This document shows, in pieces, positions 1-10,417 of a stretch of DNA of 11,525 nucleotides. Every line of letters starts with the position of its first letter. The stretch's first letter is position 1. A program made the translations under genes and the position numbers. Source of the DNA: a virus. The stretch lies in UHGV virus genome UHGV-1357462. One strand, given 5' to 3'. The notes under the pieces were generated by a model. That model saw only the letters and a list, made by a program, of their open reading frames with translations. It was not told where the DNA came from and did not search any database.

Positions 1-786
1 CTGATTGACTGTGCAGCCGAACCGACACAGTTTAACGGACGATCGCTGGTACAGATTGCGCAGGCGCTTGCTGCGCCTTTCGGCATTGAGGTGGTGAACA
101 ACAGTGCGCCGTCGGGTGTTATTCCTGATGTCCAGCCTGATCACGGCGAAACGGTGATTGAGGTGATCAACAAAATACTCGGTCAGCAGCAGGCACTGGC
201 TTACGACGACCCGCACGGCAGGCTGGTGATTGGCGGTATTGGCTCAACGCGGGCACATACCGCGCTGGTACTTGGGGAAAACATCCTTTCCTGTGATACG
301 GAGAAGAGTATCCGGGAGCGGTTTTCAGTTTACCAGGTGGCGGGGCAGCGTGCCGGAAACGACGATGATTTCGGTGAGGCCACCACCACCGCGCTGCGGG
401 CCCGCACAGAGGACGCATTTATTGCCCGTTACCGTCCGATGTATATCAGGCAGACAGGGCAGGCCACGGGGGCAGGCTGTATTGCCCGTGCGGACTTTGA
501 AGCCCGACAACGGGCGGCGCGGACGGATGAAACCACCTATGTGGTGCAGGGATGGCGACAGGGTAACGGTACGCTGTGGCAGCCCAACCAGCGGGTGATT
601 GTCTTCGATCCGGTCTGTGGTTTCGACAATACCGAACTGCTTGTCTCGGAAGTCACGTTTACTCAGGACCAGAACGGCACCCTGACGGAAATCCGTGTCG
701 GCCCACCTGATGCTTATCTGCCTGAACCCGAAGCCCCCGGCGCGCGGAAAAAGAAAAAAGCCAGAGTACAGGAGGACCCGTTCTGA
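1..786 (+). CDS. Baseplate hub / tail protein, P2 gpD (late control D) - Mu P-like; 5'-partial, the frame is open from position 1
   Basis: Frame 1 has no stop from nt 1 to the TGA at 784-786; the 91 start in the ORF track is a GTG inside a longer gene. Its position directly upstream of a gpV-like spike gene and its overlap with it (TGATG at 784-788) match the Mu P-Q / P2 D-V order. Family assignment is from recalled similarity, not a search. Confidence 0.6.
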   Translation: MIDCAAEPTQFNGRSLVQIAQALAAPFGIEVVNNSAPSGVIPDVQPDHGETVIEVINKILGQQQALAYDDPHGRLVIGGIGSTRAHTALVLGENILSCDTEKSIRERFSVYQVAGQRAGNDDDFGEATTTALRARTEDAFIARYRPMYIRQTGQATGAGCIARADFEARQRAARTDETTYVVQGWRQGNGTLWQPNQRVIVFDPVCGFDNTELLVSEVTFTQDQNGTLTEIRVGPPDAYLPEPEAPGARKKKKARVQEDPF

Positions 787-1334
787 TGAGGACGATTGAA
801 GCCATGCAGCGACAACTCCTCGGCCTGATTGGGCGGGCTGTGGTGAAAAGCATCAGTGCCGCCACGAAATGTCAGACCGTGGATGTGTCCCTGATTGCCG
901 GTGAACCCAAAGCCGGGGTTGAACATCTTGAACCCTACGGTTTTACCGCAAGGGCAAACAGCGGTGCGGAAGCGGTGGTGTTGTTTCCGGATGGCGACCG
1001 TTCTCATGCGGTGGTTGTTACGGTGTCGGACCGGCGCTACCGCCTGAAAGGGCTGCAGACGGGTGAGGTGGCTGTCTATGACGATCAGGGGCAGTCCGTG
1101 ACGCTGACCCGGGAGGGGATCGTGGTGGACGGTGCAGGTAAGACGATCACGTTTCGCAATGCGCCCAGAGCACGTTTTGAAATGGACCTGGAAGTGACCG
1201 GACAGGTGAAAGACCTGTGCGACTCCGGCGGCACCACCATGTCAGCGATGCGGCTTGCCTATAACGGGCATCGTCACAGAGAGAACGGTCAGGGCAGTAA
1301 CACCGATAAACCTGATAAAGCGATGGAGGCATGA
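786..1334 (+). CDS. Baseplate spike / assembly protein V-like (P2 gpV, Mu gp45)
   Basis: 182-codon ORF whose ATG at 786 overlaps the upstream stop; its size and position between the hub gene and the GP46/J genes fit the conserved baseplate order. Confidence 0.65.
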   Translation: MRTIEAMQRQLLGLIGRAVVKSISAATKCQTVDVSLIAGEPKAGVEHLEPYGFTARANSGAEAVVLFPDGDRSHAVVVTVSDRRYRLKGLQTGEVAVYDDQGQSVTLTREGIVVDGAGKTITFRNAPRARFEMDLEVTGQVKDLCDSGGTTMSAMRLAYNGHRHRENGQGSNTDKPDKAMEA

Positions 1335-1759
1335 TGGAACTGTGGCTGACGGTGAACGGTAAACGCACCTGCGCCAGCTCACCGCTGGATCCGCTGACCC
1401 GCGCCGTGGTGATTTCCCTGTTCACCTGGCGGCGGGCGGAGCCTGATGACAATGCCGACGTCCCGATGGGATGGTGGGGGGATACCTGGCCTGCGGTACA
1501 GAATGACCGTTACGGCTCCCGACTGTGGCTGCTTCAGCGCAGCAAACTGACCAATCAGCTGGTGCAGACGGTAAGGGGGTATATCCGCGAATGCCTGCAA
1601 TGGATGATTGATGACGGCGTGGTGTCCCGTATTGATCTGGATATCCGCCGCACCGGGATTAATGAGCTGGGTAACAGTATCACCCTCTGGCGTCGTGACG
1701 GACCGGTAATGATTTCTTTTGATGATCTGTGGAGTGCGATAACGCATGGCGGACAGTGA
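1331..1759 (+). CDS. Baseplate protein, phage GP46 family (Mu gp46-like)
   Basis: 142-codon ORF overlapping the upstream stop (ATGATGG). GGAGG at 1325-1329 is better spaced for the second ATG at 1334, so the true start may be 1334. Position between V-like and J-like genes. Confidence 0.55.
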   Translation: MMELWLTVNGKRTCASSPLDPLTRAVVISLFTWRRAEPDDNADVPMGWWGDTWPAVQNDRYGSRLWLLQRSKLTNQLVQTVRGYIRECLQWMIDDGVVSRIDLDIRRTGINELGNSITLWRRDGPVMISFDDLWSAITHGGQ

Positions 1760-2804
1760 ATTTCAGCGCCCGACGCTGGCAGAAAATATCAGTATGCTCC
1801 GTAACGATTTATTCGCCAGGCTGGACGTCAGCGACACGCTCCGGCGCATGGATGAAGACGTGCGGGCAAAGGTGTATGCGGCGGCGCTGCATACGGTTTA
1901 CGGGTACATCGATTATCTGGCAATGAACATGCTGCCTGACCTGTGCGATGAGTCCTGGCTGGCGCGACATGCTGCGATGAAACGGTGTCCGCGCAAGGGG
2001 GCCACGGCTGCCAGCGGGTATATGCGCTGGGAAGGTGTCAGCGATGGCCTGAAGGTGACTGCCGGGAGTGTTATTCAGCGCGATGACCTGGTTCAGTACA
2101 CGGCAACTGCCGATGCAACCAGCTCCGGTGGTGTCCTGCGCGTGCCGATCGCCTGCTCAAGTGCAGGCGCGGTCGGTAACGCTGACGACGGTACGTCATT
2201 AATCCTGGTCACGCCGGTTAATGGTCTGCCGTCTTCCGGCGTGGCAGATACCCTGACAGGTGGATTTGATACTGAAGAGCTGGAAACGTGGCGCGCCCGC
2301 GTCATTGAGCGATATTACTGGACGCCTCAGGGCGGGGCTGACGGGGACTATGTCGTCTGGGCTAAAGAAGTGCCCGGCATTACCCGCGCATGGACATACC
2401 GTCACTGGATGGGAACGGGAACTGTCGGTGTGATGATTGCCAGCAGTGACCTGATTAATCCCATTCCGGAAGAATCAACGGAAACGGCGGCAAGACAACA
2501 CATTGAGCCACTGGCCCCGGTGGCAGGCTCTGATTTGTATGTATTCAGGCCGGTGGCACATACGGTGGATTTTCATATCCGCGTGACGCCGGACACACCA
2601 GAAATACGGGCTGCCATTACCGCGGAGTTGCGTTCGTTCCTGCTGCGTGATGGTTATCCGCAGGGAGAACTGAAGGTATCGCGTATCAGTGAGGCGATTT
2701 CCGGTGCGAACGGGGAATACAGCCATCAGTTGCTTGCACCGGTGGACAATATCTCCATTGCGAAAAATGAGCTGGCGGTTCTGGGGACGATTTCATGGAC
2801 GTGA
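1746..2804 (+). CDS. Baseplate J-like protein (Mu gp47 / P2 gpJ family)
   Basis: 352-codon ORF whose ATG at 1746 overlaps the end of the previous gene (translational coupling). Size and conserved position match baseplate wedge protein J. Confidence 0.75.
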
Positions 2805-3379
2805 CAAACGATGATTACATCCGCCTGTTATCGGCACTGTTGCCGCCCGGTCCTGCATGGTCAGCCAGCGATCCGGCGATTGCCGGTGCGGCACCTTCAT
2901 TAACCCGCGTTCATCAGCGTGCGGATGCTCTGATGCGGGAGCTTGATCCGCGCACCACCACCGAGCTGATAAATCGCTGGGAGCGTCTGTGTGGCCTGCC
3001 GGATGAATGTATTCCCGCAGGGACACAGACCCTTCGCCAGCGTCAGCAACGGCTGGATGCGAAGGTTAACCTGGCGGGTGGCATCAACGAGGATTTTTAT
3101 CTTGCACAGCTTGCTGCCCTGGGCAGACCAGATGCCACCATCACGCGATACGACAAAAGCACGTTCACCTGCTCATCGGCCTGTACTGACGCTGTGAATG
3201 CGCCGGAATGGCGGTATTACTGGCAGGTCAACATGCCAGCCGCCACCAACACCACCTGGATGACATGTGGCGATCCCTGTGATTCCGCGCTGCGTATCTG
3301 GGGCGACACCGTTGTCGAGTGTGTGCTTAACAAACTCTGCCCGTCGCATACCTACGTAATTTTTAAATATCCGGAGTAA
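2795..3379 (+). CDS. Tail/baseplate protein, Mu gp48 / e14 YmfQ-like (DUF2313-type)
   Basis: 194-codon ORF overlapping baseplate J by 10 nt, located immediately before the tail-fibre gene as in Mu and e14; has the N-terminal LLPPGPAW segment I associate with this family. Confidence 0.55.
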
Positions 3380-3382
3380 TCC

Positions 3383-4129
3383 ATGCATCGTATAGACACG
3401 AAAACCGCGCAGAAGGATAAGTTCGGCGCGGGTAAGAACGGTTTTACCCGTGGTAACCCCCAGACAGGCACGCCTGCCACCGATCTGGATGATGACTACT
3501 TTGACATGTTGCAGGAAGAACTCTGCAGCGTGGTGGAGGCATCCGGTGCCAGTCTGGAGAAGGCGCGGCACGACCAACTGCTTACCGCGCTTCGTGCGCT
3601 GCTGTTAAGCCGCAAGAATCCGTTTGGCGATATCAAATCGGATGGCACGGTGAAAACGGCTCTCGAAAACCTTGGTTTGGGAGAAGGTGCTCCAGCTATT
3701 GGCGTTCCGTTCTTCTGGCCGTCCGCTGCAATGCCAAATACTGTAATCGACAGCTGGTCCAGTATGGTGTTTTTGAAGTTCAACGGCGCGAAATTCTCTG
3801 CCACTGATTATCCTGTGCTGGCGAAAGTGTTTCCTTCGCTGGTATTACCTGAAGCCCGCGGTGATTTCATTCGTATCTGGGATGACGGGCGAGGTGCAGA
3901 CGGTGGTCGCGAATTATTAAGCTGGCAGGAAGCTACAAACTTTTCTCAGTTTGCCGGGAATATAGGCGGAGGTGCGGGACACGCAATTAACTTTCATGAT
4001 GGCATCGCCGGAAATCAGCCAGGATTTTCACGATTTAATTTCACCAGTAACTCTGTGGGTGATGGTGTGAATTTTGTTGCTGTCAGACCGCGAAATATTG
4101 CATTTAACTTTCTGGTGAGGGCTAAATAA
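3383..4129 (+). CDS. Tail fibre protein: constant N-terminal part (3383-3672) fused to the currently expressed variable C-terminal part (3673-4129)
   Basis: GGAGT RBS at 3372-3376 and ATG at 3383. A 26-bp invertase crossover site lies inside the gene at 3660-3685. The stop TAA overlaps the ATG of the downstream assembly gene. The N-terminus resembles e14/Mu-type side tail fibre proteins. Confidence 0.8.
3660..3685. repeat. Invertase crossover site (pix/gix-like), left copy, inside the tail-fibre gene
   Basis: TTCTCGAAAACC-TT-GGTTTGGGAGAA: two imperfect 12-bp half-sites around a 2-bp core. 3672-3686 is a perfect 15-bp inverted repeat of 5464-5478, and 22 of 26 positions match the inverted right-hand site. 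Confidence 0.7.
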
Positions 4130-4722
4130 TGAAACCTGTTTTTGATGAAAATGGGCTGGCTACAGTGCCGGGCGATATGCGTTGTTTTTATTATGATGCT
4201 GAAACATCTGAGTATACGGGCTGGTCTGATGAATATATTAATACTGGCGTAAGTATGCCCGCCTGTTCCACTGGTATTGACCCGGGCGAAAACATTCCGG
4301 GGAAAGTGGCAGTATTTACGGGTAAGGGATGGAGCCATGAAGAAGACCATCGCAATGAGACTGTTTACTCAACAGAAAATGGCGCAGCTGTTACAGTGGA
4401 TTATATCGGTGCCATCAAAGACGGTTATGTCACGCTTTCACCGTTAACGCCATACGATAAATGGGATGGTGAGAAATGGGTGACGGATACCGAGGCACAG
4501 CATAGCGCCGCAGTAGACGCGGCAGAAGCACAACGTCAGTCACTGATTGATACTGCAATGGCTTCCATTAGTCTGATTCAACTGAAATTGCAGGCCGGAC
4601 GGAAACTGACGCAGGCAGAAACAACCCGACTTAACGCCGTGCTGGATTACATTGACGCGGTGACGGTAACAGATACCAGCACCGCGCCGGATATCATCTG
4701 GCCTGAACTGCCGGAGGCGTAG
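4129..4722 (+). CDS. Tail fibre assembly protein (Tfa / Mu U-like)
   Basis: 197-codon ORF whose start overlaps the tail-fibre stop (TAATG). Its 3' end overlaps the convergent tfa' gene; the C-terminal motif ...TSTAPDIIWPELP mirrors ...TSSAPDIEWPTPP in the - strand paralogue. Confidence 0.75.
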   Translation: MKPVFDENGLATVPGDMRCFYYDAETSEYTGWSDEYINTGVSMPACSTGIDPGENIPGKVAVFTGKGWSHEEDHRNETVYSTENGAAVTVDYIGAIKDGYVTLSPLTPYDKWDGEKWVTDTEAQHSAAVDAAEAQRQSLIDTAMASISLIQLKLQAGRKLTQAETTRLNAVLDYIDAVTVTDTSTAPDIIWPELPEA

Positions 4723-5113
4723 GCCATTCAATATCTGGCGCACTGGAAGTATCGACCAGCTCCAGTGCGTCCAGATAATCCAGCCACAAATTATATTGCG
4801 CCAGTTCCTCACCTTTCAGACGACCAATAGCCGCTTTACCAGGCCATTGCCTGCTGTTCATGTGCTCGTTGGCTTCATTAATAAGTTTTCCTTTTTTCAA
4901 CTCTGCCAATGCAATAAGGTTTTCTTTTGATAAAGGTGGTTGCTCTGTCAAAACCGGATATCCCTCCTGATTGCTGACTATTTTCATGCCATTATCCTGA
5001 CCATCCAGTAGTGACAGCCATTCATCCGTGGTTATCTCAACAGCATCTGAAGGTGCTTTATTTAAATCGGTAAAAAAACCATTTTCTTTTTGTGAATAGA
5101 AGTATCTGTCCAT
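4694..5113 (-). CDS. Alternative tail fibre assembly protein (Tfa' / U'-like), silent in this orientation
   Basis: 139-codon ORF on the - strand, convergent with and overlapping the + strand tfa by 29 nt. It shares the C-terminal motif with the + strand Tfa and lies 3 nt downstream of the alternative fibre-tip ORF. Confidence 0.7.
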   Translation of the reverse strand: MDRYFYSQKENGFFTDLNKAPSDAVEITTDEWLSLLDGQDNGMKIVSNQEGYPVLTEQPPLSKENLIALAELKKGKLINEANEHMNSRQWPGKAAIGRLKGEELAQYNLWLDYLDALELVDTSSAPDIEWPTPPAVQAR

Positions 5114-5116
5114 TTA

Positions 5117-5518
5117 TCAATCTCCAAAAGCAATCCAGTAAGCAAAAGGATTTATTCCTTGCTCAGTCACAGATGACATCAGGGAAAATTGCGATGGTGA
5201 AACAGGTAATGCTGCAAAACTAACCATTGTTGACACACCTGACCGTGCATTATCGTACGATGCAACAACACAATAATTGGTATTGCTGAAAGATATCGGC
5301 AGGGTGATATTTACAGGTGAGCCTAATGGCCCTGATGCTGATATTCCCATTTGAATGATGGTTCCATCAGGCAATTTTCTCCAGCGATTAGAACTCGGAT
5401 TTCTTTTCCAGGCTGACATATCCGGTATCTGATTTTCTCCTGTGCCTACATCCCTTTTCGCCGCTTCTCCCAAACCAACGTTTATGAAAATGCAGAAATA
5501 ACGAGCAAATGGCATCAT
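5117..5518 (-). CDS. Alternative tail-fibre variable C-terminal segment (Sv'-like), lacking its own start in this orientation
   Basis: The - strand ORF spans the right crossover site. The encoded NVGLGEAAK across the site parallels NLGLGEGA at the left site in the expressed fibre. The ATG at 5518 lies outside the invertible segment and is probably not a real start; functional coding would be 5477 down to 5117 after inversion. Confidence 0.6.
   Translation of the reverse strand: MMPFARYFCIFINVGLGEAAKRDVGTGENQIPDMSAWKRNPSSNRWRKLPDGTIIQMGISASGPLGSPVNITLPISFSNTNYCVVASYDNARSGVSTMVSFAALPVSPSQFSLMSSVTEQGINPFAYWIAFGD
5465..5490. repeat. Invertase crossover site (pix/gix-like), right copy, just upstream of the invertase gene
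   Basis: TTCTCCCAAACC-AA-CGTTTATGAAAA: same 12-2-12 architecture as Hin/Gin/Cin/Pin sites, in inverted orientation relative to 3660-3685, with the core AA versus TT. Confidence 0.7.
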
Positions 5519-5544
5519 TCCTGCTTTTGTCAGGGAGATCTACC

Positions 5545-5901
5545 ATGCTTATTGGCTATGTACGTGTGTCAACAAATGACCAGAACACAGATCTACAGCG
5601 TAATGCGCTGAACTGTGCAGGATGCGAGCTGATTTTTGAAGACAAGATAAGCGGTACAAAGTCTGAAAGGCCGGGACTGAAAAAACTGCTCAGGACATTA
5701 TCGGAAGGTGACACTCTGGTTGTCTGGAAGCTGGATCGGCTGGGGCGTAGTATGCGGCATCTGGTCATTCTGGTTGAGGAGTTGCGCGAACGTGGCGTTA
5801 ATTTTCGCAGCCTAACGGATGCTATTGATATCAGCACGTCGATGGGGCGTTTTTTCTTTTATGTGATGGGGGCCTTGGCTGAAATTGAGTTTCAGGATTA
5901 A
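5545..5901 (+). pseudogene. pin: Pin/Gin/Hin-family serine DNA invertase, truncated: catalytic domain only, C-terminal HTH DNA-binding domain missing
   Basis: Starts MLIGYVRVSTNDQ (active-site Ser region) with AGGGAG upstream. Recalled similarity to e14 PinE runs to about codon 115 (…GALAEIE), then the frame ends after FQD at 5899-5901. Full-length invertases are about 185-190 aa. Neither of the other two frames downstream encodes a recognisable invertase C-terminus. Confidence 0.6.
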
Positions 5902-6061
5902 GCGATATCGTACTCACCCTTGGTCCCACCTAATAAATCTGAAGAACGGAAGCGCTGCCAGATGATGGTGGTGGCTACAATTATTCACACTCAATCTTCG
6001 GAGCAATCACGTACATCATAATGATGTTAGGAATACGGAGTTTAATGACTGTCCAGTGATG

Positions 6062-6091
6062 TAAAAAGAAACCCCGGCGTAGTAGCCGAGG
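6062..6091 (-). terminator. Rho-independent terminator downstream of the peptidase gene
   Basis: On the - strand: CCTCGGC-TACTAC-GCCGGGG (7-bp GC-rich stem with one G-U pair, 6-nt loop) followed by TTTCTTTTT, beginning about 25 nt after the stop. Confidence 0.55.
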
Positions 6092-6114
6092 TCCTCAATC
6101 AGAAACTACAATAT

Positions 6115-7119
6115 TCACTGAGTGCCTTCATCTGGTTGCTCTGCTGGTAAGGTTCCAGCCTCTTCTTCAGTTTCCGCATGTTTTCCATCGCCTCCCTGGA
6201 CAGGTTCATCCCTTGGCGGTTCTGCTCTTCCTGAATTTTGGTCAGAGATTTCATCTCCTTCCTGAATTCTGCTGTTGTCATGGGAATCTTCCTCTGCGTT
6301 AGTTGTTTCATATTGTTTTTTAGGAGTTAAATCTTTAATCATCGGTTTGTCGAAGATAGAGATTTCGCCTGACGAAATCATTTCACCAAGAACTTCGTAC
6401 AGGTTGGCTGCAAAATCTGTAGGACTCTCAACATGGTTGAATAGTTCCCTCGCCTCTTTACGGTCTATCACAAAACCATGGGCTGGATATCCAGCGATCA
6501 ACTTGCCTAATGAGCTTTCCTTAAGATTTTTCGAGTGACTATTCAAACGTTCCCCATAGGAAAGCGCTATGTTCATTGCTCGCTGATGCTCCCCGAGTTT
6601 GATAGGGTCTATCTGTGAGGCCATCGGCGATATGATTGCTTCAGTAAGCTTAGCAGCAATATCTGCAGACATCTTTGTGCTAATTTGGTTTCTGTACTTT
6701 ATATCAAGTACGTATGATCTAAAGGTCGAAATAGCGCACTCTTTTATTTCATCAATCGCCGTTGCGATAACAAGGCCCGAGCTCAATTCGCCGATCTCAT
6801 CATTTTTCTTAAGTTGGATATCTAGAGGGCCAAGCTCACCCATATCACCAATCACGAGCTTATGAGCGGCGACAGCCATCAATGTTCCAGCACTTTTGCA
6901 AGGGCCAACAACTAGAACGGTGATGTGCTCATAGTTGTGTTGCAAAGCGCGGCCAATTCTATATCCTGCGCTGGGATCACCGCCATAGGTAGCGACGCAA
7001 AAAAGAACATTTTTTTGTAAACCATGGTTAGTTTTTCTTTCTTTAATCGCTTTGGTGATGTCGTGATGACCAGAGCGGTGAACATCGCCTATGTATACGT
7101 AAACGTCTGTATCTTGCAT
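6115..7119 (-). CDS. ClpP/crotonase-fold serine peptidase (ClpP / S49 / SDH-like) with a long acidic C-terminal tail
   Basis: 334-codon ORF with AGGGA RBS. By eye the core aligns to ClpP: VATYGGDPSAGYRIGRALQ vs INSPGGVITAGMSIYDTMQ, and ITVLVVGPCKSAGTLMAVAAH vs [21 protein letters not shown], placing a Ser at the nucleophile position. The last 60 or so residues are D/E/G/P-rich. No His at the ClpP His position, so possibly a Ser-Lys dyad. Confidence 0.55.
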   Translation of the reverse strand: MQDTDVYVYIGDVHRSGHHDITKAIKERKTNHGLQKNVLFCVATYGGDPSAGYRIGRALQHNYEHITVLVVGPCKSAGTLMAVAAHKLVIGDMGELGPLDIQLKKNDEIGELSSGLVIATAIDEIKECAISTFRSYVLDIKYRNQISTKMSADIAAKLTEAIISPMASQIDPIKLGEHQRAMNIALSYGERLNSHSKNLKESSLGKLIAGYPAHGFVIDRKEARELFNHVESPTDFAANLYEVLGEMISSGEISIFDKPMIKDLTPKKQYETTNAEEDSHDNSRIQEGDEISDQNSGRAEPPRDEPVQGGDGKHAETEEEAGTLPAEQPDEGTQ

Positions 7120-7427
7120 TTTAATCCCTATGAATAAAATGGTTGAATTTAATGCTGTTCCTCAGCCAAAGCACTGTATCGATAACCAAAATACCTCAGA
7201 TTTGTCGAGAAAACTATCTGGAAAATTAGGCTAACTCTTTGAATCTTCGGAATGCAAAAAAGATAATTTCTCTGGATGGGCGCTAAGTTGATGTGTAAGT
7301 ATGACGGTTAGAACGGTCTCGGAAACCGCAGGCACGTCGTATGCAAGAACGTGCTGCGGCTGGCTGGCGAACTTTCGATAGTGCGAGTATTGAATGATTT
7401 CCAGCCGTTACCGATTTTACGTGTTAA

Positions 7428-7676
7428 TTAGTGAACAAACCACTCGTCAGCAGATTCCCAGGTATCTTTCAGAGTCTCCTGAACAAAAGTTTTTGCAGAA
7501 TCCTTATCTGCGGTGCGTGTAACAGAAAGGCCATCGTTGCTGGTGGCTTTTACGATCACCTCTACATCGTCATAACGTTTACTGATGCGTCGGGTTAATT
7601 CTTCCTTTAACGCATCCACAGCACCGGTTGGCATTTTAGTCATTTTTTCTTTGGCTATGCAGATTTCAATACGCAT
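7428..7676 (-). CDS. dinI: DinI-family SOS-response protein (prophage-borne DinI homologue)
   Basis: 82 codons starting MRIEICIAK and ending …[17 protein letters not shown], closely matching recalled E. coli DinI (MRIEVTIAK…QETWESADDWFV). AGAGGGA RBS, and two LexA boxes in its promoter. Confidence 0.8.
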
Positions 7677-7689
7677 AAAAGTCCCTCTA

Positions 7690-7709
7690 CACTGTGTTTG
7701 TATACAGTA
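7690..7709 (-). promoter_or_regulatory. LexA (SOS) box, promoter-proximal
   Basis: - strand TACTGTATACAAACACAGTG, i.e. CTGT-N8-ACAG with flanking TA, close to the consensus TACTGT(AT)4ACAGTA; about 14 nt upstream of the dinI-like start and overlapping the predicted transcript start region. Confidence 0.7.
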
Positions 7710-7712
7710 TTA

Positions 7713-7741
7713 TTTTTAACTGTATGAATAAACAGTGTCAA
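7713..7741 (-). promoter_or_regulatory. Sigma70-type promoter for the dinI-like gene
   Basis: - strand TTGACA (7741-7736), 17-nt spacer, TAAAAA (7718-7713). Perfect -35 and acceptable -10, with both LexA boxes placed for repression. Confidence 0.5.
7718..7737 (-). promoter_or_regulatory. Second LexA (SOS) box, in the -35/-10 spacer
   Basis: - strand CACTGTTTATTCATACAGTT, CTGT-N8-ACAG, immediately abutting the -35 hexamer. Confidence 0.65.
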
Positions 7742-7760
7742 TAGAACAAAGATTGCTGCA

Positions 7761-8178
7761 TGTACAAATGTTCTTTGGCTACAAATACACCTACTGATCA
7801 TGTTCTGCTATGCTCTGATACCTCCAAAATGTACAATCAGCGGCATGAATTTTTCTTTGTACATATGATTGTACATAATTAAAGAGACAACAATTATGAC
7901 AAGCCTTTTGGCCGCAGAGGTAGCGAAAAGAAGAACCTTTGCAATTATTTCTCACCCCAATAATTAAGTCCAAATTAAAGCTCTTTTACTCTTTCAAAAT
8001 CCTTTCAGTTAATTGAAGTTGAGCTATATAACTCATTTAAATACATTTGTTTATGTAGCTTCTTTAATTGAAAACTCTTTCATGTAACTTTAAATCGATC
8101 AGCTTGCTTTCATCAAAAACCTGTACATATGCTTGTACATAATGTACAAAACAGCAGAGGTGTTTTGCGATTTGTACA
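7761..8178. repeat. AT-rich array of eight TGTACA(W)A motifs including a 22-bp direct repeat; candidate integrase arm sites / attP or operator array
   Basis: TGTACA at 7761, 7830, 7858, 7870, 8122, 8134, 8143 and 8173. The 22-mers at 7858-7879 (TGTACATATGATTGTACATAAT) and 8122-8143 (TGTACATATGCTTGTACATAAT) match at 21 of 22 positions. Sits between the dinI promoter and the integrase start. Confidence 0.6.
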
Positions 8179-8187
8179 AGGTGAGTA

Positions 8188-9411
8188 ATGGCGCTGTCTG
8201 ATGCGTGGTTGCGTTCAGTCGTTGGAAAGGAACGTGATAAGGTTTTGGTTAAATCCGATCGTGATGGTCTGTCTGTCAGAGTATCACCGAAAGGTCGCGT
8301 AGTGTTCCAATATCGTTATCAATGGGCAGGGAAAGGTGAGCGTCTTGATATCGGAACTTACCCGGCAACTGGATTAAAAGAGGCCAGAGAAGAAGTTATC
8401 CGTCTTCGTGGTGAACTCGAGTCAAACCGTAATCCACGATTGGTCAAGCAGGCTGAAAAACGAAAAGCTACTGAAGCCATGACGGTAGAGTCTGTGATCC
8501 GTGCTTGGTATGAAGCATATTGTGTAAAAAATAAAAAAGGTTCTGAACAGATACTTCGCTCGTTTGAGCTGCACCTGTTCTCTAAAATCGGGAATATCCC
8601 TCACGATGCAGCTACATTGCATGATTGGTTAGAAGTCCTGGAGCCTCTTAGCACTAAGACTCCAGCAATAGCAGACCGATTGCTAATTAACGCAAAGCAG
8701 GCCCATGTCTGGGCGTATAAGAGAAAGCTCATTGAAACTCGCCCGCTGTCGGATATCACGGGTAAAGATATGGATATCCGTAAAGGTCAGAAGAAACGGT
8801 TTCTGACACATGATGAAATTAAAATCCTTTATGCTGCGATCGATGGTTCTCGAATGGTTCCTAAATACCGGGCCTTCATTAAACTATTGCTGCATTTTGG
8901 TTGCCGTAGTTCAGAGCTAATTACCGCCCGGGTGGACGATTTTGATTTCATTAATAAAGTATGGACTGTACCACCAGAACGACATAAGACAGGGGAGATA
9001 ACAGGCGAACCGCTAAAGCGGCCCATTATTGAACCGGTTGAAGAGCTTATAAAGTACGCTATCTCTATGAACAATGGTTCCGATATGCTTTTTACTAAGG
9101 AAGGAAGCAGGGAACCCGTTGGTCGGACATCATTGCAGTCGCTGCCTTACAATTTAATGCAGTACGCATGGCGGTGTTTAGGATATCAATTCCCTCATTG
9201 GTCTCTTCATGACTTGAGACGTACAGCTCGAACAAATTTTTCTGATCTTACTGCGCCTCATATCGCAGAAATTATGCTTGGTCATAAGCTGCCAGGGGTA
9301 TGGCAAGTTTATGATAAGAGCGATTATCTAGAAGAACAGCGTAAAGCTTACCTGGCATGGTGGAAGAGGGTTGAATCGATTGTTAATTGTACTATCTCTG
9401 ATTCAAACTGA
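8188..9411 (+). CDS. int: Tyrosine integrase, P4-type, with an N-terminal arm-binding (DUF4102-like) domain
   Basis: 407 codons with AAGGTGAG RBS. N-terminal …GLSVRVSPKGRVVFQYRY… is typical of P4-family integrases. Catalytic-domain hallmarks are present: LHFGCRSSEL (Arg), HDLRRTART (His-x-x-Arg) and LGHK…VYDKSDY (His and Tyr). Confidence 0.9.
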   Translation: MALSDAWLRSVVGKERDKVLVKSDRDGLSVRVSPKGRVVFQYRYQWAGKGERLDIGTYPATGLKEAREEVIRLRGELESNRNPRLVKQAEKRKATEAMTVESVIRAWYEAYCVKNKKGSEQILRSFELHLFSKIGNIPHDAATLHDWLEVLEPLSTKTPAIADRLLINAKQAHVWAYKRKLIETRPLSDITGKDMDIRKGQKKRFLTHDEIKILYAAIDGSRMVPKYRAFIKLLLHFGCRSSELITARVDDFDFINKVWTVPPERHKTGEITGEPLKRPIIEPVEELIKYAISMNNGSDMLFTKEGSREPVGRTSLQSLPYNLMQYAWRCLGYQFPHWSLHDLRRTARTNFSDLTAPHIAEIMLGHKLPGVWQVYDKSDYLEEQRKAYLAWWKRVESIVNCTISDSN

Positions 9412-9697: not shown

Positions 9698-10417
9698 ATG
9701 TCAAAGTTAAAAAATGAACCATTAGTAAGGGTATCAGAAGAAGACGGAATAGAAATAAGGAAGATCCAATATCCAGATAATACGATAGAAAGAATTTATA
9801 AGCAGAAAGGTGTAATATTACCACGAATACCTTTAAAAGGCCGCTTTGTAGAACAATATGTGGCCTTACAGTTGCTTGATAAAGATCTTCGGAATGTTAT
9901 TGGTTGGGAGAATATAATAAAAAACATTTGTAATAACATTAATAAAGAACAACACTTTATTTATCCGGATTTAGAAAAGAATCTAATATTAAAGTCTTTA
10001 TTTATATCAAAAGTTGTTACTTACGGTAAGTGTTTTACAGAGGCGAAAGGGCGTCGATTCACATTGCAGAGAAAGCATGTGCCAGAAAAATACAGAGATT
10101 TACATGATTCTATTATGAATGTTAGACATAACTTTGCTGCCCATAAAGGTGAATTCGAATATGATCAATGTGGCTTGGTTTTAATATTGCCGGGGACCAA
10201 GAAGAAAAGGTACTATCATATTTTTTCAGAGCTCAATCAAATAAATTACGGTAATAATGAGGAAGATGATGAACGTTTTTTTATGTTATATGATTCACTG
10301 CGTGAAGTCATTAAAGAAAAACAAGATAAATTAATTGATAAAATATACGCTGAAAAGATTCATACTCAAACAATGGAGTATTGGTTGAGCCGAGCAGGAA
10401 AAGAAACAGAGATTTAA
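9698..10417 (+). CDS. Hypothetical protein, very AT-rich orphan cargo gene; weak HEPN-like R-x5-H motif (VRHNFAAH)
   Basis: 239 codons with a strong RBS (AAGAGGG, 10 nt before the ATG). Clearly lower G+C than all neighbours. No family recognised beyond an R-x5-H spacing compatible with the loose HEPN Rx4-6H signature. Sits between the integrase and the AlpA-like gene. Confidence 0.7.
   Translation: MSKLKNEPLVRVSEEDGIEIRKIQYPDNTIERIYKQKGVILPRIPLKGRFVEQYVALQLLDKDLRNVIGWENIIKNICNNINKEQHFIYPDLEKNLILKSLFISKVVTYGKCFTEAKGRRFTLQRKHVPEKYRDLHDSIMNVRHNFAAHKGEFEYDQCGLVLILPGTKKKRYYHIFSELNQINYGNNEEDDERFFMLYDSLREVIKEKQDKLIDKIYAEKIHTQTMEYWLSRAGKETEI

Follow-up and report, generated by a model that had tools for sequence, protein, structure and literature searches.

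Among the described systems, the closest to the locus analyzed here is the invertible P segment of the e14 prophage with its serine invertase PinE, a member of the Din family, which also includes Gin of phage Mu, Cin of phage P1 and Hin of Salmonella. The e14 segment spans about 1.8 kb, contains opposed tail-fibre C-termini along with tail-fibre-assembly (tfa) genes, and has the invertase gene just outside its right crossover site; the inverted repeat reported for this segment is TTGGTTTGGGAGAAGG (PMC12529663). In Gin, the catalytic core (residues 1-100) is followed by helix E (101-137), which provides the dimer interface as well as the exchange interface of the synaptic tetramer, and by the DNA-binding domain that starts at residue 138 (PMC3575834). 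In addition, the invertases need a cis-acting Fis enhancer, which in hin is embedded in the part of the gene that encodes the N-terminus, at a distance of about 100 bp from a hix site (PMC2724282; PMC3798978). The e14 P segment is also inverted from another prophage by PinQ and PinR, which are 38% identical to PinE (PMC12529663). Deletion of pinE, however, locks the segment even in the presence of pinQ and pinR (PMC12529663), an observation that would fit a cis element inside pinE; this reading is ours and not a claim of the authors of that study.

We compared with these systems a stretch of 11,525 nucleotides from the virus genome UHGV-1357462 (hereinafter, the window), which is part of a temperate Escherichia coli myovirus of the e14/SfV type. 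The Mu-like baseplate genes (91-3379, delineated from Pfam, PHROG and ORF calls) are followed by a tail-fibre gene, two convergent tfa genes, a silent gp53-like cassette on the minus strand and an invertase ORF, and beyond that ORF by a fragment of an S24 peptidase gene, a protease gene, dinI, the attachment region, an integrase gene and early genes. The segment and the invertase ORF are laid out in the same way as in e14, and the segment is bounded by the same crossover-site inverted repeat; the difference resides in the state of the invertase gene.

The invertase ORF (5545-5901, plus strand), with a Shine-Dalgarno-like GGGAGA 7 nt upstream, encodes 118 amino acids: 115 codons from the start of a PinE-type serine DNA invertase gene (5545..5888, plus strand; denoted pin') are followed by three foreign codons and a stop. 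The limits of pin' were set using Pfam, alignment to intact pinE and the domain boundaries of the Gin structure. The Pfam Resolvase N-terminal domain extends over residues 3-115 of pin' (E = 3e-40), the PHROG 'DNA invertase' family over residues 1-115, and Pin aligns with Mu Gin (3UJ3) one-to-one, residue for residue. The catalytic core (residues 1-100) is retained, including Ser9, D64-R65 and R68, and both the YVRVST and the WKLDRLGRS motifs are present; the initial annotation of this DNA, which was made from the sequence alone and stated that the core had been kept, was correct on this point. Its reading of the end of the ORF, according to which after about 118 codons ...GALAEIE gives way to FQD and a stop, with the similarity to Pin-family proteins ending there, is exactly what the translation shows. 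That the gene was cut after the catalytic domain is accurate as far as the truncation itself is concerned, but the cut falls inside helix E (residue 115 of 101-137) rather than cleanly behind a domain: the first 15 residues of the helix are retained, and 22 of its 37 residues are gone. As also proposed in the annotation, the HTH domain is missing in all frames of the window, because tblastn searches with the C-terminal 74 residues (111-184) of two invertases found nothing there (best E-values of 0.4-0.9). Thus, compared with PinE, pin' ends at codon 115 without most of helix E or any HTH, and should be unable to flip the adjacent segment; the 118-aa product is expected to be unable to bind crossover sites and to be inactive. 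We conclude that pin' is a remnant of a Din-family invertase, that is, a pseudogene.

Alignment to the full-length gene defined the breakpoint precisely, as the annotation had suggested. The intact 184-aa pinE of one of the compared loci (L004; the compared loci are designated by L numbers) shows no mismatches to the window over 5400-5813 and eight over 5814-5886, and all similarity ends at 5888. The next two bases (GT, 5889..5890) come from neither parent, judging from the alignments to both. Starting at 5891, the DNA matches, with 70-77% identity, the 3' third of intact prophage humD genes, which encode S24-family proteins related to HumD of phage P1 and UmuD. Relative to the intact gene of the E. 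coli Nissle 1917 prophage, which encodes 148 aa, this fragment ('humD, 5891..6068, plus strand) spans the part from codon ~89 through the stop. In contrast to intact HumD/UmuD, the window retains only codons ~89-148 of 148, and these are disrupted by an 8-nt and a 1-nt deletion, which cause two frameshifts, and by an in-frame stop; the self-cleavage site and the region bearing the catalytic Ser are both lacking, so that 'humD does not qualify as a full-length S24 peptidase gene. Past the junction, the invertase ORF continues out of the humD frame through FQD to the stop at 5899-5901. Both halves of the junction are annotated as incomplete pseudogenes in RefSeq.

Given that two truncated genes of the same strand are fused at this point, illegitimate recombination or deletion is indicated; the microhomology at the junction amounts to 3-4 nt (GGAA) at most. 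The interpretation in the initial annotation of a recombination or deletion breakpoint at which a cargo module was joined is therefore borne out, with pin homology stopping at 5888 and humD-type homology starting at 5891 on the same strand. The annotation further described an abrupt transition near 5890 to DNA of lower GC content. The step is real, from 0.483 in pin' to 0.431 in 5889-7320, but it is small, and a larger change, from 0.578 to 0.463, occurs at 3667. We also considered whether the breakpoint could be a self-inflicted event at a sequence resembling a crossover site, and rejected this possibility because the pin sequence at the breakpoint does not resemble such a site.

Downstream of 'humD, a terminator-like hairpin (6069..6094, minus strand) lies 3' of a cargo gene on the minus strand (6115..7119) for a predicted SDH-family serine proteinase with a ClpP fold, an assignment made from a weak PF01972 match, a full-length match to phrog_21683 and the RefSeq product name. 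It is followed by a dinI-like cargo gene (7428..7676, minus strand; Pfam DinI). A PADLOC search gave no match for the cargo proteins, and an Rfam search gave none within the window. Matches of 72-75% identity to the non-coding stretch 7203-7330, between the protease gene and dinI, are found in ~470 E. coli genomes; no feature is annotated, and there is no Rfam match. The 5' end of a phage-borne replacement prfC (7896..7957, plus strand) includes the att core (attP, ~7916-7957). The limits of this core are given by the match to chromosomal prophages, which stops at 7957, and by the int-side match, which begins at 7916; the start of prfC in L001 corresponds to window position 7896. The prfC-specific tyrosine integrase gene identified with Pfam (8188..9411, plus strand) comes next, adjoined by an ORF of 239 aa (9698-10417) with a very low GC content (~0.30), which matches phrog_8440 over its full length and has no Pfam or PADLOC match. 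In APEC E19025, the chromosomal copy is 99.99% identical to positions 1-7957 of the window and then runs into prfC; upstream, this prophage has an HK97-type head module. In the window, by comparison, dinI, attP and int are uninterrupted (7677-8187), with the replacement prfC 5' end beginning MTSLLAAEVAKRRTFAIISHP..., and the window therefore represents the circular-phage or tandem configuration. The arrangement in which dinI is directly followed by int was seen in none of the 19 complete genomes and in none of the 10 contigs inspected; the dinI-attP-int block is also present in phages cdtI and 2H10.

The segment adjacent to pin' has all the parts of its e14 counterpart. The tail-fibre gene in the expressed position (3383..4129, plus strand; PHROG tail fibre families) consists of a constant 5' part that extends up to the left crossover site and a variable 3' part inside the segment. 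In RefSeq, the corresponding product in L001 (17984-18730), WP_137544414.1, is named 'integrase', which appears to be a mis-annotation in view of the strong matches to PHROG tail-fibre families. The left 26-bp crossover (pix) site, CTCTCGAAAACCTTGGTTTGGGAGAA (3660..3685, central TT at 3672-3673), lies inside the tail-fibre gene, contains the e14 inverted repeat (arm at 3667-3686) and is kept in all related loci. The right 26-bp site, TTCTCCCAAACCAACGTTTATGAAAA (5465..5490, central AA at 5477-5478), is in inverted orientation relative to the left one, and the two bound a P-type segment of ~1.8 kb next to pin' (3673..5477; 1805 bp between the site centres). Within it, the first tfa gene (4129-4722, plus strand) converges with a second (4694-5113, minus strand), both recognized by Pfam Caudo_TAP, and the silent alternative tail-fibre C-terminal cassette, gp53-like according to Pfam Gp53-like_C, occupies ~5117-5477 on the minus strand.

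Three pairs of pin'-carrying prophages contain the same segment (99-100% identity) as exact reverse complements, with the exchange exactly at the sites; in two of the three pairs, the flanks are near-identical as well. The 1.85-kb segments of L010 and L013 are 100% identical only in reverse complement, and their flanks are 100% identical over 1.0 kb on the left and 2.4 kb on the right. Between L017 and L019/L022, the segment is 100% identical in reverse complement, and the left flank is identical at 4029 of 4030 positions; the third comparison, of the window, L001 and L014 with APEC O78, gives 99% identity in reverse complement. These comparisons indicate that the ~1.8-kb segment is still being inverted at its two 26-bp sites without an invertase of its own. 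Because the truncation is common to all the flipped prophages, the inversions most likely occurred later than the truncation, although in principle the flipped pairs could have arisen by recombination between prophages that already differed in orientation. There are at least seven segment lengths among the related prophages, and therefore cassettes are exchanged as well.

Several of the related loci are rearranged around the sites. In L011 (strain Z1323CEC0019; 2990-3010), the DNA to the left of the equivalent of window position 5479 is swapped for a truncated lambda-like gpU gene, the swap point lying immediately past the AA at the centre of the right crossover site, and in L020 (1-4880), unrelated genes take the place of the left part of the segment; both rearrangements may be aberrant invertase-mediated events. 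In L012/L021 (APEC O78), an inserted IS2 element separates the right crossover site from the beginning of pin' (~5490-5530 of the window), and the segment is flipped.

Since pin' lacks the DNA-binding domain, it should not be the catalyst of inversion. Most likely, the segment is flipped in trans by other serine invertases of the host; candidates include PinE of e14 and, from the Qin and Rac prophages, PinQ and PinR. Inversion in trans, as described for PinQ and PinR acting on e14 (PMC12529663), is the mechanism that we propose for the segment of the window. K-12 has an intact cis gene, pinE, whereas pin' of the window phage is dead, so that inversion in this phage would rely wholly on outside enzymes. 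The 3' (HTH-coding) region of another invertase was detected on the chromosome in 13 of the 19 genomes with the junction (see below), and in the other six, no second pinE-like 3' region was detected on the chromosome at the DNA level; these probes covered chromosomes only and are blind to distant enzymes such as PinQ/PinR. Probably, the cis-acting Fis enhancer is still provided by what remains of the 5' part of the gene; its likely position, at ~5560-5640 within pin', is suggested by its location in hin.

Orphan invertible segments are not unusual. The prophage of Nissle 1917 integrated at yecD (L007) is an example, in which a dinI/humD cargo pair comes after a P-type segment bounded by the two crossover sites. 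In contrast to the window, L007 has no pin sequence at all, contains an intact 148-aa humD and lacks the SDH protease gene. Within this region of L007 (3585-6183), dinI and the intact humD come immediately after the right crossover site. The full-length matches to the pin-less segment of the Nissle type are all in one orientation (19 of 19), and all come from Nissle clones.

The block consisting of 'humD, the SDH protease gene and dinI is found behind the tail-fibre regions of other phages, too. The dusA-integrating phages L002, L003, L005 and L006 have this junction as well but retain no more than 28-45 nt of pin, and their 'humD - protease - dinI block is ~97% identical to that of the window. 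In L002 and L003, the sequence directly to the left of the identical junction is a 28-mer, TGTAATAGGGTCCCTGTCTGAAATKGA, in which 23 of the 28 nt agree with pin; it reads V-I-G-S-L-S-E-I-E, compared with V-M-G-A-L-A-E-I-E in pin', and weaker pin similarity lengthens the remnant to ~45 nt. A different, intact invertase is encoded upstream in L002, and none in the lambdoid L003. The dusA phages also contain, ahead of the cargo block (L002, 11858-12030; L003, 11866-12030), a direct repeat of ~120 bp that copies window 7321-7444 together with the terminal 17 nt of dinI contained in it and is followed by 19 nt and then by the 28-nt pin remnant; the protease unit of these phages is thus bracketed by direct repeats. 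Because the junction is shared by the dusA phages, with 28-45 nt of pin, it can be considered old and traveling with the cargo block; the pin|humD fusion appears to have formed once and to have moved since as the edge of this block. The intact ancestral arrangement, in which pin would precede humD and the SDH protease gene, was not found in E. coli, so that the event may have been either a deletion or a recombination between phages, and the SDH protease gene is present at ≥95% identity only in 21 genomes, all of which also contain the 'humD fragment.

At a threshold of at least 99% identity, the junction was detected in 19 of the 5,426 complete E. coli genomes, and the exact 118-aa protein is encoded on at least 104 contigs. 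In all 14 loci inspected, the junction belongs to an e14/SfV-like myovirus prophage adjoining prfC, and all 10 contig contexts shown for the exact protein likewise adjoin prfC; one sub-lineage has an in-frame 6-bp duplication. In GTDB, with each species represented by one genome, the junction was not detected at all, and thus no copy is seen outside E. coli; a scan of IMG/VR produced two contigs with the junction, both in the short-remnant form. Among the top matches in a phage collection, no record had the junction, only the dinI-attP-int block.

The differences between pin' and intact alleles are distributed unevenly. Residues 1-95 are identical to those of intact PinE alleles, and all pin'-specific changes fall within the last 75 of the 344 nt, an older, diverged 3' edge (5814..5888, plus strand) that holds all differences from intact pinE alleles. 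They include one or two synonymous changes and four replacements within residues 96-114 (window 5830-5888): T96I, P99S, H106Y and M114I. Every intact pinE allele differs from this edge at 5-6 positions, and none is more than 94.9% identical to it. The ratio of non-synonymous to synonymous changes, 4 to 1-2, looks like neutral change. Two of the replaced positions are known from mutational work: Hin H107Y and Gin M114V are hyperactive mutants that are independent of Fis and of the enhancer; H106Y in pin' is the same change as Hin H107Y, and I114 is at the position of Gin M114V. We regard this overlap as a coincidence of neutral decay.

From these observations, the following history can be proposed. 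In an ancestor of the window phage, itself an e14/SfV-like temperate myovirus, a single illegitimate recombination or deletion would have joined codon 115 of a PinE-type gene to codon ~89 of a humD gene on the same strand, removing the rest of helix E, the HTH domain and whatever separated the two genes. The junction would then have moved as the left edge of the 'humD - SDH protease - dinI block, whose place is between the tail-fibre genes and attP/int. Homologous recombination with relatives carrying intact pinE would have repeatedly replaced the segment along with the 5' part of pin', and the edge next to the heterology, being shielded from replacement, would have decayed neutrally; only the last 75 nt would show the old divergence because the 5' part keeps being exchanged. 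We consider this account as a whole, with a pseudogene produced by one fusion that moves with the cargo block and a segment flipped in trans, to be probable, with considerable confidence.

A different order of events, in which the junction of the window is secondary, is rather unlikely. Under this scenario, an intact pinE would have recombined with a short pin remnant in front of 'humD in a dusA-type block, deleting the 3' end of pin along with the intergenic DNA. The 28-nt stretch of L002 and L003, with its 23 of 28 matches to pin at the junction, would have been a possible site for such a homeologous crossover. An earlier pin|humD fusion is still required, however, so that only the order of events changes, and the 5-6 differences from every intact pinE in the last 75 nt better fit an old edge.

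The alternative that the 118-aa protein is a functional short variant kept as useful, for instance, as a modulator of other invertases, strikes us as very improbable. The ORF is intact, has the GGGAGA motif 7 nt ahead of it and recurs without change on at least 104 contigs, and Y106 and I114 occupy positions known from Fis-independent mutants of Hin and Gin. All these copies, however, represent one nearly clonal allele, and their conservation is accordingly uninformative on function; the initial annotation had left room for a conserved, functional variant of this length, and no evidence of one was found among the near-identical copies. Moreover, the product has no DNA-binding domain and lacks more than half of helix E (22 of 37 residues), one sub-lineage carries the 6-bp duplication, the 4 to 1-2 ratio at the 3' edge looks neutral, and the dusA phages retain just 28-45 nt of pin. 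Accordingly, it is highly doubtful that Pin' is made and modulates the other invertases of the host, which would allow the prophage to tune tail-fibre switching without a complete recombinase.

Even less credible, at an extremely low probability, is the insertion of a mobile cargo element into pin with the 3' half of the gene located beyond the insert, a scenario for which only the abrupt end of homology speaks. The missing 3' part of pin, which the initial annotation proposed to look for elsewhere, is present neither in the window, which spans attP and int, nor in front of prfC in the chromosomal copies, where the prophages end at prfC right after dinI; with this half absent all the way to attP or prfC, insertion of an element does not account for the junction. 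Furthermore, the DNA at the junction is a truncated gene rather than the end of an element, and there is no target duplication. As the halves of pin do not flank an insert, this explanation is refuted for the present phage genome. A sequencing or assembly error that created a false frameshift or stop, also raised in the annotation, has a practically negligible probability and is refuted as well because the identical junction recurs in 19 independent complete genomes and many draft contigs (at least 104 for the exact protein), and the DNA downstream has no similarity to pin in any frame.

Taken together, pin' is an ordinary pseudogene of a mosaic phage, already flagged as such in RefSeq, and should not be named a functional recombinase in annotations. 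Only two points are unusual: the genome comparisons clearly point to an adjacent segment that flips without an enzyme of its own, and two of the four substitutions at the edge coincide with positions of hyperactive mutants. The locus is of modest value as an example, provided by nature, of an invertible tail-fibre segment that continues to flip after the loss of its cognate invertase. Such an orphan segment could serve to test whether the 5' part of an invertase gene is kept for the cis-acting enhancer and which host-encoded Pin proteins act on orphan segments. In a phage of this kind, the host-range switch would depend on the recombinases of other prophages residing in the same cell.
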